From a virus (lineage: Duplodnaviria; Heunggongvirae; Uroviricota; Caudoviricetes): 4,835 bases of DNA. The translations under genes and the position numbers were made by a program. Positions 1-4,835 of the stretch are shown piece after piece. The DNA is taken from IMG/VR virus record IMGVR_UViG_2693429508_000011; one strand, 5' to 3'. The notes below the pieces were generated by a model. That model was not told where the DNA came from. It was given only the letters and a program-made list of their open reading frames with translations, and did not search any database. Within the stretch, counting starts at the first letter, position 1. Each line of letters begins with the position of its first letter.

Positions 1-30
1 ACACTAAATCAGTAAGTTGGCAGCATCACC
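1..30 (-). mobile_element. IS1 terminal fragment: left inverted-repeat end of an IS1 copy that extends leftwards out of the window
   Basis: Positions 1-30 (acactaaatcagtaagttggcagcatcacc) are the exact reverse complement of the recalled IS1 left end GGTGATGCTGCCAACTTACTGATTTAGTGT. The element is therefore in minus orientation and its boundary is at position 30. Confidence 0.85.
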
Positions 31-137: not shown

Positions 138-566
138 TTATTTAGACAAACTATCTAATTTTTGCGTCGCTTTTTGTGTTAGGTCGCTGTAACTGATAAA
201 CCCTACGTTAGCACCTACAATTAACACTAAGAACACTAAGCTGCATATGGATAGAGTGGCAGATTTATGCTTATGGAAAACAAAATATGCTACTATTGCA
301 CTTAATATGAAGGAAATGAATAGAAATATAGATGTTGATGTTTTTAGATATTTTTCAGGAAATAATGGGTGAGCAATAATGTATACAAGATTAAGTAGTA
401 TATAAATTGCTACCGGAATGAAAATCATGCTCCAGTGTGTATCTTTTTTGGGAGGGATTGGCTGCAAATAATCAGACACCGTTTTTCCATCAGTTTCAAG
501 AAGAATTACTAGATCTCTTACTTCACCACTGACTTGAGTGCCATCCTTAGTAGTAATGTTAATCAT
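138..566 (-). CDS. Hypothetical small membrane protein, 142 aa: about 45-aa N-terminal soluble domain followed by three predicted transmembrane helices
   Basis: ORF 138..623 trimmed to the internal ATG at 564-566, which is preceded by a strong Shine-Dalgarno GGAGGG with a 5-nt spacer (minus strand reads tttGGAGGGaaaaaATG). Three hydrophobic stretches (IFIPVAIYILLNLVYIIAHPLF, IFLFISFILSAIVAYFVF, LSICSLVFLVLIVGANVGFI). Its ATG overlaps the upstream gene's TGA as ATGA. AT-rich, unlike the neighbouring phage genes. No family recognised. Confidence 0.6.
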   Translation of the reverse strand: MINITTKDGTQVSGEVRDLVILLETDGKTVSDYLQPIPPKKDTHWSMIFIPVAIYILLNLVYIIAHPLFPEKYLKTSTSIFLFISFILSAIVAYFVFHKHKSATLSICSLVFLVLIVGANVGFISYSDLTQKATQKLDSLSK

Positions 567-940
567 TTTTTCCCTCCAAATACGATGCCCTCTACGTCTT
601 TGGAAGCTTTTTGTGATGACCACTCCTCTGAATCAGGTGATTTAATTAAAAATATTGTATCTCCATCAAAAATCGTATTTGTTCCGTAAAAATTCACATT
701 TGATAGATCACCACCAAAAACCCTCTGCCCACTCGAGGTAATTGCCTCACCTAATTTAGTAAAATTACCAGCAATAGATGATTTTCTTTTTCCACTTCTA
801 TTCAAAGTGGCTTTAATTACACCACCACCATCCTTAGAGTTAAATAATTGAATGTCCACTCCAGCAGTTGGTTGTATATATTTTGAAAGCTCTTTCTTGA
901 ACTTGTTAATATATTTATCTTTGTTTTCTTTGTTGGTCAT
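563..940 (-). CDS. Hypothetical soluble protein, 125 aa, Gly/Ser/Lys-rich; first gene of a two-gene operon
   Basis: Uninterrupted 125-codon ORF in AT-rich DNA with a single Met start at 940. Its stop (TGA, 563-565) overlaps the start of the downstream membrane-protein gene. Upstream Shine-Dalgarno is weak (GGAT). No recognisable family from sequence alone. Confidence 0.5.
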   Translation of the reverse strand: MTNKENKDKYINKFKKELSKYIQPTAGVDIQLFNSKDGGGVIKATLNRSGKRKSSIAGNFTKLGEAITSSGQRVFGGDLSNVNFYGTNTIFDGDTIFLIKSPDSEEWSSQKASKDVEGIVFGGKK

Positions 941-1027
941 TGGTTAGATCCATAGTTCTGGCTGTGATTAGGTGAAAGTATACAAGGTTTTTAAAGCGAA
1001 GATCACTGTTTTGGCTTCAAGATAGTT

Positions 1028-1056
1028 TTGATTTATCGTAATCAATCCGCCATAAT
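1028..1056 (+). promoter_or_regulatory. Candidate sigma70 promoter upstream of the nin operon (-35 TTGATT, 17-bp spacer, -10 CATAAT)
   Basis: TTGATT at 1028-1033, 17-bp spacer, CATAAT at 1051-1056, about 150 bp upstream of the ybcN start and oriented towards it. Hexamer match only, no experimental support. Confidence 0.3.
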
Positions 1057-1204
1057 CCTCTCATCGGAGCCTGAACAACTCCGGTGACTTCTGCGCATTT
1101 AAGGGGACTTAAATGCGACCACAATCTGAACTCATCACCTTGTCACAGATGCAGAAATGCACCTGCGATTTTCTGCATTCTGCGGTTTCCGTTAGGGAGG
1201 CCGT

Positions 1205-1660
1205 ATGACTCTGCCAGTAGACGGCATCAAACTCCATCGCGGTAACTTCGCGGCCATCGGCCAGCAGATTCAGCCATTGCTGGATGCCGGGCAATGCTTA
1301 CGCCTGCAGGTTAAGCCGTGGCGCGAGAAGCGCAGCCTGTCGCAGAACGCGCTCAGCCACATGTGGTACACGGAGATCAGCGAATATCTCATCGCCCGCG
1401 GCAAGACCTTCGCTACGCCTGAGTGGGTCAAAGACGCGATGAAGCACACCTATCTCGGCTACGAAAGCAAAGACCGTGTAGATGTCGTGTCCGGCGAGGT
1501 CACCACCGTCCAATCCCTCCGCCATACGTCAGAGCTGGAAACCGGCGAGATGTACATCTTCCTGTGCAAAGTCGAAGCCTGGGCGATGAATATCGGCTGC
1601 CACCTGACAATTCCGCAGAGCTGTGAATACCAGCAGCTGCGCGATAAGCAGGAGGCGTAA
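1205..1660 (+). CDS. ybcN: NinB/YbcN-family phage protein (nin region recombination / DNA-binding protein), 151 aa
   Basis: 151-aa ORF with Shine-Dalgarno GGGAGG 5 nt upstream of the ATG. Length and position (first gene of a ninE-ybcO-rusA cluster) match DLP12 ybcN as recalled. Sequence identity is recalled, not searched. Confidence 0.8.
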   Translation: MTLPVDGIKLHRGNFAAIGQQIQPLLDAGQCLRLQVKPWREKRSLSQNALSHMWYTEISEYLIARGKTFATPEWVKDAMKHTYLGYESKDRVDVVSGEVTTVQSLRHTSELETGEMYIFLCKVEAWAMNIGCHLTIPQSCEYQQLRDKQEA

Positions 1661-3102: not shown

Positions 3103-3128
3103 ATTAAAAATGGGGCGTTGCAACGCCC
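3103..3128 (-). terminator. Candidate rho-independent terminator for the minus-strand porin transcript
   Basis: Perfect 18-bp palindrome GGGGCGTTGCAACGCCCC (3111-3128), followed on the minus strand by a T-rich tract (ATTTTTAATAATTTTTAG), about 140 bp downstream of the porin stop. Confidence 0.4.
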
Positions 3129-3216
3129 CCAAAAATAAAGGGTAATATATAACAGAAGGTTTATATAGTTAGAAGCAAGGTTGTGCTCCTAAAGGAAGTG
3201 GCTTGAGGGAGCCACT

Positions 3217-4456: not shown

Positions 4457-4782
4457 NNNNNNNNNNNNNNNNNNNNNNNNNNNNNNNNNNNNNNNNNNNN
4501 NNNNNNNNNNNNNNNNNNNNNNNNNNNNNNNNNNNNNNNNNNNNNNNNNNNNNNNNNNNNNNNNNNNNNNNNNNNNNNNNNNNNNNNNNNNNNNNNNNNN
4601 NNNNNNNNNNNNNNNNNNNNNNNNNNNNNNNNNNNNNNNNNNNNNNNNNNNNNNNNNNNNNNNNNNNNNNNNNNNNNNNNNNNNNNNNNNNNNNNNNNNN
4701 NNNNNNNNNNNNNNNNNNNNNNNNNNNNNNNNNNNNNNNNNNNNNNNNNNNNNNNNNNNNNNNNNNNNNNNNNNNNNNNNNN
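4457..4782. other. Run of 326 N (assembly gap or masked sequence); content unknown
   Basis: Continuous n characters. The two ORFs in the track spanning it (4419..4796 and 4423..4818) are artefacts of translating N. Confidence 0.95.
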
Positions 4783-4804
4783 GTTTACGTACGTAAAAAA
4801 TTGG

Positions 4805-4835
4805 GGTAATGACTCCAACTTATTGATAGTGTTTT
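4805..4835 (-). mobile_element. IS1 terminal fragment: right inverted-repeat end of an IS1 copy that extends rightwards out of the window
   Basis: Positions 4805-4835 (ggtaatgactccaacttattgatagtgtttt) are the exact reverse complement of the recalled IS1 right end AAAACACTATCAATAAGTTGGAGTCATTACC. Same minus orientation as the IS1 end at 1-30. Confidence 0.85.

Follow-up and report, generated by a model that had tools for sequence, protein, structure and literature searches.

A probable promoter and structured RNA leader upstream of ybcN in a DLP12-like lambdoid nin region

The region upstream of ybcN

We analysed a stretch of 4,835 nucleotides (nt) of viral DNA (hereafter the window; IMG/VR record IMGVR_UViG_2693429508_000011, Caudoviricetes), which represents a DLP12-like lambdoid nin region carrying ybcN, ninE, ybcO, rusA, ylcG and quuD, with a porin gene on the opposite strand. 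The interval studied here comprises the 264 base pairs (bp) between a minus-strand cargo cassette and ybcN, the first long gene of the nin operon, and most of it (window 1027-1204) belongs to a conserved module with sharp boundaries that precedes genes of the NinB/Orf family in hundreds of lambdoid phages and prophages, DLP12 of Escherichia coli K-12 among them. We consider it likely that this module is the promoter and structured 5′ leader of a ninB/orf (here ybcN) operon, and that translation of ybcN is gated through a small open reading frame (ORF) within the leader, ylcH.

The features on which this reading draws, including four hairpins (H1-H4) and two inverted repeats (IR-1 and IR-2), are as follows:

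1028-1056, plus strand: putative sigma-70 promoter of the ylcH-ybcN (nin) operon, assigned by motif match and conservation; -35 TTGATT at 1028-1033, 17-bp spacer, -10 CATAAT at 1051-1056
1061-1087, plus strand: RNA hairpin H1; 9-bp stem with one U.G pair and conserved 9-nt loop CCUGAACAA (1070-1078)
1086-1096, plus strand: linker GACUUCUGCGC between H1 and H2; columns more than 90% conserved
1094-1117, plus strand: RNA hairpin H2, the same as IR-1; perfect repeat with 10-bp stem and loop GGGA
1113-1208, plus strand: leader ORF ylcH, homologue of K-12 ylcH (b4588) and phage 82 orf33; 31 codons, MRPQSELITLSQMQKCTCDFLHSAVSVREAV
1142-1169, plus strand: RNA hairpin H3 inside ylcH; GUCACAGAUGCA-GAAA-UGCACCUGCGAU, with a GNRA tetraloop at 1154-1157
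1149-1178, plus strand: IR-2; ATGCAGAAA-12 nt-TTTCTGCAT, covering ylcH codons 13-22 (MQK...FLH); perfect in the window lineage only
1179-1208, plus strand: RNA hairpin H4; the ylcH 3′ end (UCUGCGGUUUCC) pairs with GGAGG (1196-1200) and AUG (1205-1207) of ybcN
1205-1660, plus strand: ybcN, a NinB/Orf-family recombination mediator (NCBIfam PRK09741, 261 bits; Pfam NinB; E. coli annotation)

An initial annotation of the interval had reported the promoter candidate and the two repeats; it had overlooked H1 (whose 1061-1087 repeat contains one G.T wobble), H3, H4 and the ylcH-like ORF.

Comparative set and alignments

Relatives of ybcN were gathered from genomes, one for each species, and from viral contigs: the module is present in 98 of the 121 loci fetched, which yielded 84 distinct leader sequences, and a further 120 loci were gathered by exact 32-mer search. 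Base pairs in H1 and H2 were counted on an Infernal alignment of 40 sequences. A MAFFT alignment was dropped for this purpose because stems of unequal length fell out of register, and a first Infernal alignment was discarded because it took in weak and minus-strand matches. Loop-anchored or other gapless alignments served for unfitted tests of H1, H3, H4 and IR-2, and the controls for covariation were 500 shuffles and partners slid out of place. Against the Rfam 15 covariance models, no part of the window scored at an E of 1 or below.

The promoter

The sigma-70-like promoter that the initial annotation described as facing ybcN, TTGATT-17-CATAAT, is found on the plus strand at 1028-1056. It scores 9 of the 12 consensus positions, a match that taken alone is not above chance (nine matches in the window against 9.7 expected), so that the support for this promoter comes from its relatives. 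Among 80 distinct leaders, TTG occurs at the -35 position with 17-bp spacing in 73 and a -10 hexamer is present in 79, with variable flanks and mid-spacer. At least six hexamer versions are found at this fixed spacing (TTGATT/CATAAT, TTGATA/CATAAT, TTGATA/GATAAT, TTGCAA/CATAAT, TTGCTT/GATAAT and TTGATT/CATACT), together with a further version that has an extended -10 (TGTTATAAT) and no -35, and the first hairpin loop always follows 11-14 nt after the -10. The hexamers of the window are also labelled as a putative -35 and -10 in the phage 82 record (X92588). In 51 of 200 loci a canonical intrinsic terminator (GGCCTCTTCGGAGGCC plus a T run) occurs 8-14 nt ahead of the promoter region, and two control segments further upstream have it in none; because the terminator is directly followed by the promoter, we regard this region as the boundary of a transcription unit. 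Given this pattern of conservation the promoter is very probably real, and its start site is predicted at about 1062-1064 (about 572316-572320 in K-12).

Terminators of this kind can be seen at 1262-1285 of locus L020 and at the upstream ends of L047, L051 and L064; the window itself is without one.

Hairpins H1 and H2

Both repeats of the initial annotation exist as perfect repeats in the window: the arms of IR-1 (CGCATTTAAG/CTTAAATGCG, 1094-1103 and 1108-1117) are 10 nt long, 100% complementary and separated by a 4-nt loop, and those of IR-2 (ATGCAGAAA/TTTCTGCAT, 1149-1157 and 1170-1178) are 9 nt long, 100% complementary and separated by a 12-nt loop. When 941-1204 was shuffled 3000 times with its dinucleotides preserved, 1.9% of the shuffles contained one or more perfect inverted repeats of at least 9 nt (loop 3-20) and none contained two or more, and the presence of two therefore exceeds chance. 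The two repeats fared differently among the relatives, where IR-1 is kept with compensatory changes, and is thus a conserved RNA hairpin (H2), and IR-2 is paired no better than in shuffles (see below).

H2 is preceded by a second conserved hairpin, H1, and about 45 variants of the segment after the -10, folded singly, all give the same H1 and H2. On the Infernal alignment, which is fitted to the model, 98.1% of the H1 + H2 cells are paired and double changes are found in 17 of 20 pairs, values that none of 500 shuffles reaches; the covariation score is 0.451, and falls to 0.02-0.04 with partners slid by one to three columns. A three-way alignment likewise has compensatory changes both in IR-1 and in H1.

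The anatomy of H2 (-13.3 kcal/mol, z = -6.7) is built around the start of ylcH: a Shine-Dalgarno-like AAGGGGA (1101-1107) occupies the loop and upper stem, and the ylcH AUG (1113-1115) lies in the 3′ arm. Eight of its ten pairs have double changes and 99.5% of cells are paired on the Infernal alignment, with which RNAalifold agrees. Stem pairs are replaced from AU to UA, CG or GC with complementarity alone being kept, and G.U pairs occur, while throughout the ~45 variants the loop stays G-rich (GGGA or GGGGA) and the 3′ arm holds AUG or GUG.

H1 (-12.5 kcal/mol, z = -4.0) has double changes in nine of ten pairs on the model-fitted alignment, with many wobble pairs that fit the plus strand only. 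The gapless, loop-anchored alignment gives the same picture, with 94.4% of cells paired against 58.5% in shuffles and double changes in seven of eight pairs. About 50 G.U or U.G cells would be A.C mismatches on the other strand, from which it follows that the H1/H2 structure belongs to the plus-strand transcript. The stem varies freely, from 7 to 13 bp among leaders; the loop, with consensus YYUGARCA, is conserved, which suggests a specific partner. In the phage 82 record the same repeat is marked as a 'possible regulator-binding site'. Hairpins of the H1 type occur only in this leader across 862 kilobases (kb) of phage DNA scanned, and we accordingly rejected H1 as a dispersed multi-target motif. 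A complement to the H1 loop was sought within the window, and none was found beyond chance; likeness of the loop to a tRNA-Phe anticodon loop or to rrn boxA seems a poor fit.

Three diverged leaders, from Pseudescherichia, Escherichia sp. and Franconibacter, carry three tandem H1-type hairpins with CYGAACA loops (L014 1320-1385, L020 1320-1385 and L026 985-1050).

In K-12, Term-seq recorded RNA 3′ ends at 572349 and 572350 of the plus strand in two growth conditions, and no Rho-termination region is listed near them (PMC7815308). By alignment these positions correspond to window 1093/1094, that is 5-6 nt after the H1 stem, so the K-12 leader is transcribed and an RNA ending just after H1 accumulates. 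This stable 3′ end could reflect weak termination, exonuclease stalling or cleavage in the linker.

The leader ORF and hairpins H3 and H4

The stop codon of ylcH (TGA, 1206-1208) overlaps the start codon of ybcN (ATG, 1205-1207) as ATGA. In all 84 distinct relatives an in-frame ORF of 29-33 codons runs from the 3′ arm of H2 to an ATGA or GTGA overlap, despite indels and a diverged N-terminal half, and the stop/start overlap is kept in 111 of the 120 further loci. Those loci place it before at least four NinB types, some of them only ~25% identical to YbcN, and we therefore regard the leader with ylcH as a general partner of ninB/orf genes; in HK639, for example, the module precedes a lambda-type NinB. 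The same overlap joins the 33-codon orf33 to orf151 in phage 82 (X92588) and ylcH (b4588) to ybcN in K-12, and the Prokaryotic Genome Annotation Pipeline (PGAP) calls ylcH in E. coli strain BH100N. No Pfam, NCBIfam or PHROG model matches the YlcH peptide. In a published data set, ylcH RNA was 2-fold up under microaerobic growth (PMC8910356).

Two further hairpins lie within or at the end of this ORF. H3 emerged when 22 diverse full leaders were folded jointly with RNAalifold; in 32 variants aligned without gaps it is 98.6% paired, with a covariation score of 0.235 compared with 0.052 in shuffles (0/500 reach the observed value) and at most 0.012 in slid controls, and its energy in the window is -10.4 kcal/mol, against -6 to -10.2 kcal/mol across variants. 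H4 (-16.1 kcal/mol, z = -4.3) pairs 1179-1190 with 1196-1208. On a gapless alignment it is 99.2% paired versus 35-50% in slid controls, four pairs show double changes, and its covariation score is reached in 0/500 shuffles; in leaders of the phage 82/K-12 type an analogous H4 forms from a different sequence. The Shine-Dalgarno sequence and AUG of ybcN are thus paired with the end of ylcH at the very place where the stop and start codons overlap.

IR-2 behaves otherwise. It had been placed immediately before the ybcN ribosome-binding site; in fact it ends 17 nt before the Shine-Dalgarno GGAGG, inside the conserved small ORF. It is 83.0% paired on the gapless alignment against 83.3% in shuffles, 412 of 500 of which reach the observed value, and it has a single double change; its energy in the window is -9.7 kcal/mol (-13.4 with inner pairs) and ranges from -9.7 to +3.9 kcal/mol across variants. 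H3 and IR-2 are mutually exclusive and nearly isoenergetic in the window lineage. In about 12 variants the left arm of IR-2 is replaced and the right arm is unchanged, and because these substitutions are compensated in the IR-2 'loop', within H3, the left arm belongs to H3. Rejected as a conserved hairpin by the pair counts and by the energies across variants, IR-2 is a lineage-specific alternative pairing or coincidence with no conserved role.

The initial annotation had also offered the repeats as an attenuator or the remnant of a terminator. Neither is followed by a U tract (the next sequence is ACCACAAU after IR-1 and UCUGCGGU after IR-2), and we rejected both as intrinsic terminators; IR-1 moreover encloses a Shine-Dalgarno sequence and a start codon, and IR-2 is coding. 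Two weak matches of a terminator scan (1150-1167 and 1173-1185) correspond to no conserved pairings.

A model for ybcN expression and its alternatives

In the reading that we favour, the sigma-70 promoter would start a transcript whose first ~145 nt fold into H1-H4, with H1 and its conserved loop at or near the 5′ end. H2 would limit initiation at ylcH, its loop holding the Shine-Dalgarno sequence and its stem the start codon; H3 would form inside the ylcH coding sequence, and H4 would hold the Shine-Dalgarno sequence and AUG of ybcN in pairs with the last ylcH codons. A ribosome on ylcH would melt H3 and H4 and terminate on the AUGA, and this termination would expose the ybcN initiation region or hand it over. 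Because the ylcH ribosome must melt H3 and H4 and stops on the AUGA, translation of ybcN would be coupled to that of ylcH, and on the anatomy of the leader such coupling is the most likely mechanism. As to H1, we prefer to see in it a 5′-proximal element of stability or attenuation that would be recognised via its loop.

Several points weigh against this scheme. K-12 rusA, which lies downstream, was reportedly expressed adequately only once a promoter had been inserted (PMC4118853), which would mean that the K-12 prophage promoter is weak, repressed or attenuated, and a lysogen would be put at risk by a constitutive promoter ahead of Q. The outer H1 pairs start 4-6 nt past the -10, and a transcript starting ~7 nt downstream of it would lose them; because these outer pairs covary, some functional RNA should start further upstream (by read-through from PR), and such read-through RNA probably also matters. 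The strong Shine-Dalgarno sequence of ybcN might initiate independently whenever H4 breathes, and we found no ribosome-profiling or tagging data for ylcH translation in the literature. A pure translational-coupling model leaves the conserved H1 loop and the linker unexplained. Finally, part of the pair counts for H1 + H2 was obtained on an alignment fitted to the model, a concern mitigated by the single folds and by the gapless tests of H1, H3 and H4.

Three proposals would add a further layer of control to this scheme or to its H1 element. A palindrome, TTGATT-N6-AATCAA at 1028-1045, overlaps the -35 and the spacer, and its TTGAT-N8-ATCAA core could be the operator of a repressor that silences the nin promoter in lysogens, in line with the poor expression reported for the K-12 operon. 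This core is present in 67 of the 80 distinct leaders, and the spacer segment AATCAAC is 70-99% conserved versus ~40% for the mid-spacer; the symmetry is kept in phi80 (TTGATA/TATCAA), and the alternative promoter type has a different imperfect palindrome, TCATTTTTCAAAAGTGA, at the same place. The left half-site is, however, the -35 itself, so that half of the conservation is already accounted for; five diverged leaders (L011, L012, L018, L066 and L119) keep the promoter hexamers and not the palindrome, and no candidate regulator was identified. The FNR site is TTGAT-N4-ATCAA, which the N8 spacing does not fit, and the palindrome seems a poor fit to a Fur, FNR, IHF or LexA-like site. We hold such an operator to be possible, if doubtful. 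It is likewise conceivable, though on balance unlikely, that H1 and the linker form a promoter-proximal attenuator or weak intrinsic terminator at which most transcripts stop 5-6 nt after H1; expression of the nin genes and Q would then need read-through, possibly helped by a loop-binding factor, with a logic like that of the short terminated RNA from lambda PR′ and compatible with translational coupling. The position of the K-12 3′ ends in both growth conditions with no Rho region nearby, the GC-rich, stable stem of H1, the conservation of linker and loop beyond the needs of pairing and the intrinsic terminator at the equivalent position in lambda all speak for it, and a safeguard upstream of Q is biologically expected. 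Yet the tail of H1 (UUCUGCGC) has only 3 U in 8, the tails of diverged and triple-hairpin leaders are not U-rich at all, and H1 is absent from the output of the terminator scan; with ~1.6-1.9 thousand reads the Term-seq count is low, an exonuclease stall or an endonuclease product is equally possible, and conserved loops are not a property of intrinsic terminators. H1 alone stays a weak terminator candidate, given the K-12 3′ end there. More speculatively, the leader as a whole would be an undescribed cis-regulatory RNA family in which H1, with its swapping stem, its invariant loop and linker and its triplication in some phages, is bound by a host or phage factor that decides between stopping and reading on; we judge this rather improbable.

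Other explanations would do away with a role in the mRNA altogether. That IR-1 and IR-2 are DNA operators of a dimeric regulator, as had been proposed at first, draws on their being perfect palindromes beyond chance and on the label given to the neighbouring H1 repeat in the phage 82 record, and would predict that the half-sites keep their bases. The stems of H1 and H2 change instead by compensation and G.U pairing, the loop of IR-1 always carries a Shine-Dalgarno sequence and its arm a start codon, IR-2 is unconserved and coding, and the ~50 wobble cells of H1 fit the plus strand only, all of which makes this explanation extremely improbable. The hairpins might instead act in single-stranded DNA, as a loading or priming signal in phage replication or recombination: the module always adjoins replication genes and the gene for the single-stranded-DNA-binding NinB/Orf protein, DNA hairpins tolerate G.T pairs, and a mosaic crossover maps inside the module (see below). 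H2 and H4 are, however, built round translation signals at fixed positions, the hairpins lie at a fixed distance 3′ of a conserved promoter, an RNA 3′ end follows H1 in vivo, and the hairpins stay when the NinB type changes, so that a role in single-stranded DNA seems very unlikely. A last possibility, that the repeats are a by-product of mosaic recombination in a linker kept for exchange between phages and devoid of regulatory function, has in its favour that 84 different neighbours mark the module edge as a hotspot, that the crossover falls within an invariant block (1143-1168) and that leader duplications flank inserted genes (L115). We give it hardly any credence: recombination linkers need identity and not compensatory changes, four helices covary here, the ORF frame survives indels, and the promoter has been re-created in different hexamer versions. 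The promoter and structured leader with coupled translation of ylcH and ybcN thus remains the explanation that we prefer.

The module edge, the cargo cassette and flanking features

Alignment with relatives places the start of phage homology at 1026-1027, directly left of the -35. The initial annotation had rightly seen that the interval joins a variable AT-rich cargo cassette to the conserved nin module and that the composition changes here from AT-rich to phage-like; GC content indeed rises from 0.31-0.36 (windows up to 951-1050) through 0.43-0.48 (1001-1200) to 0.53-0.64 beyond, and the junction itself lies at ~1026/1027, not at 1040-1100 as had been thought. Directly upstream of the module, 84 unrelated sequences are found across 200 leader-bearing loci, and for this reason the left edge (~1027) qualifies as a precise hotspot of cargo insertion.

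One feature of the interval falls outside the conserved leader:

941-1026, minus strand: AT-rich upstream region of the cassette, identical in all cassette-bearing genomes compared

A TATACT on the minus strand at 983-978, suggested earlier as a -10 element for the cassette, does exist; it has no usable -35, the only candidates being TGATCT and GTGATC, and it lacks a TGn extension, and the promoter scan reported nothing there. All copies of the cassette found are identical at this place, so that comparison is uninformative.

The cassette itself (138-940, minus strand) consists of two AT-rich genes with a 4-nt overlap, which encode a soluble protein of 125 amino acids (aa) and a protein of 142 aa with a predicted membrane C-terminal half. 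They match only PHROGs of unknown function (phrog_18061 and phrog_16940), and no Pfam, NCBIfam or PADLOC (defence) family matched. In E. coli A7, an intact relative, the replication genes O and P are followed by the minus-strand two-gene AT-rich cassette, next by ybcN with the other nin genes, and finally by Q, the porin gene and the lysis genes; the cassette occupies a variable slot between P and the ninB leader, in which exclusion or defence cargo is common. In the window the 3′ end of the replication gene P is cut by an insertion sequence, the left IS1, and the P remnant ends at ~59. Directly 3′ of it, at 66-84 on the plus strand, a terminator-like hairpin (GGGTTATAGGTCTTAGCCC, then ATTTTAAA) may stop rightward early transcription ahead of the oppositely oriented cassette. 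IS1 termini lie in the same orientation at both ends of the window (1-30 and 4803-4835), bracketing the 4.77-kb nin segment like a composite transposon.

Exchange within the module is visible as well. E. coli BH100N (L245) is the same as the window from the cassette to ~1168 and thereafter has the K-12/phage 82 version; this switch places a mosaic crossover inside ylcH, in the block 1143-1168, where synonymous sites are almost invariant. Locus L115 has a degenerate leader copy (81-256, with a premature ylcH stop), an inserted ORF of 177 aa and then an intact leader (1323-1500) with ybcN, and L071 and L179 have two tandem ninB-type genes, each with an H1; the leader seems to be duplicated upon gene insertion.

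Further downstream, within ybcO, the window conserves CAGGTAAGAATCCCTG (1862-1877), one of two HusR (YnfL) boxes that a genomic SELEX (systematic evolution of ligands by exponential enrichment) experiment is reported to have found at its strongest peak, upstream of rusA in K-12 (PMC12844172). We rejected HusR as a regulator of the leader, since its site is this one in ybcO, ahead of rusA. A strong terminator hairpin (GGGGCGTTGCAACGCCCC plus a T run) at 3112-3129 on the minus strand separates quuD from the porin gene; in K-12, a minus-strand Term-seq 3′ end is recorded at 574366, and the flank printed with it contains a hairpin much like this one, GGGGGCGTCTCAACGCCCC, again with a T run (PMC7815308), which fits a terminator of the porin gene. 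A masked run of N (4457-4782) lies upstream of the porin gene.

Relation to known systems

The closest described relatives of the module are phage 82 orf33-orf151 (X92588; Mahdi et al. 1996, J Mol Biol 257:561) and ylcH-ybcN of K-12 DLP12, both homologous, with ~75-79% identity over 1026-1260. Their annotations give the H1 repeat as a possible protein-binding DNA site, and H2, H3, H4, covariation and coupling are not described; the stems of their H2 and H4 are unlike those of the window in sequence, with pairing kept. In phi80, the element 'IR4' (JX871397; 38786-38795 and 38800-38809), upstream of a PRK09741-family gene, is the same hairpin as H2 with its 10 bp and 4-nt loop, and the record annotates it as an inverted repeat without a function.

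Control through leader ORFs and hairpins has textbook cases in the MS2 operator hairpin with its coupled genes and in the ermC leader peptide. As in these, start signals lie in hairpins (H2 and H4), the second gene has its initiation region base-paired to the tail of the ORF before it, and start and stop overlap as AUGA; unlike them, the present leader has no known trans repressor or stalling signal and includes two hairpins, H1 and H3, without counterpart. The principle, leader ORFs with hairpins that sequester initiation signals, is therefore classical and not new. What is new here is a well-defined structured leader with a probably coupled leader ORF, the H1 loop being the one feature left outside the explanation.

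Lambda has a different arrangement at the same position. Its ren-ninB junction carries a strong intrinsic terminator (AGGCCTGC-N8-GCAGGCCT, then TTTTATTT; 40596-40627), which we take to be tR2. The leader model finds no match in lambda (L244), which is without the promoter, H1-H4 and ylcH, and whose ninB has no leader ORF; that lambda might carry the same leader was accordingly rejected. IR-1 and IR-2 differ from the lambda terminator in lacking a U tract. Terminators of the lambda kind also stand just before the promoter in 51 of the 200 leader loci. The ybcN-type leader is thus an alternative solution at the junction that lambda occupies with its terminator.

The antiterminator put RNAs of HK022 and HK639 and the nut sites of lambda resemble the leader in being stem-loops that a phage encodes within its early transcripts and that are recognised by their loop or sequence. 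Both kinds of site are found close behind PL and PR, put as a two-hairpin RNA that renders RNA polymerase resistant to termination. HK639, which is presumably a put-RNA phage without N, carries the ninB leader at least 4 kb from its immunity region, in front of ninB; location sets the leader apart from put, and we rejected its identity with the put RNA of HK639 or HK022 on this ground. In a nut site, boxA is followed by boxB, a hairpin of 5 bp with a GNRA-like loop of 5 nt, to which the N protein of the same phage binds. H1 has a stem of 7-13 bp, a 9-nt loop and no boxA upstream, and the same H1 is found in phages of different immunity types and in HK639.

Significance

The nin region leads to Q, the switch for the late genes (lysis and, in Stx phages, toxin), and in lambda, the paradigm, the only transcripts to reach it start at PR and pass tR2 by N antitermination. 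On the reading preferred here, a large group of lambdoid phages and prophages (K-12 DLP12, phage 82, phi80, HK639 and relatives across Enterobacterales) would carry at that point an insulated unit of terminator, promoter and structured leader, the last being a four-hairpin RNA with a leader ORF under clear purifying selection. The orphan small gene ylcH gains a concrete, testable role, and the K-12 Term-seq 3′ end after H1 an explanation. The covariance model and alignment could seed a new RNA family, and the hotspot edge at ~1027 is usable for harvesting accessory genes, defence cassettes or morons. Were H1 indeed bound by a factor that decides between stopping and reading on, then the leader would be an N-independent checkpoint of attenuation or antitermination for the nin genes and Q, served by a dedicated internal promoter, and this checkpoint would set the timing of late genes in many lambdoid phages.

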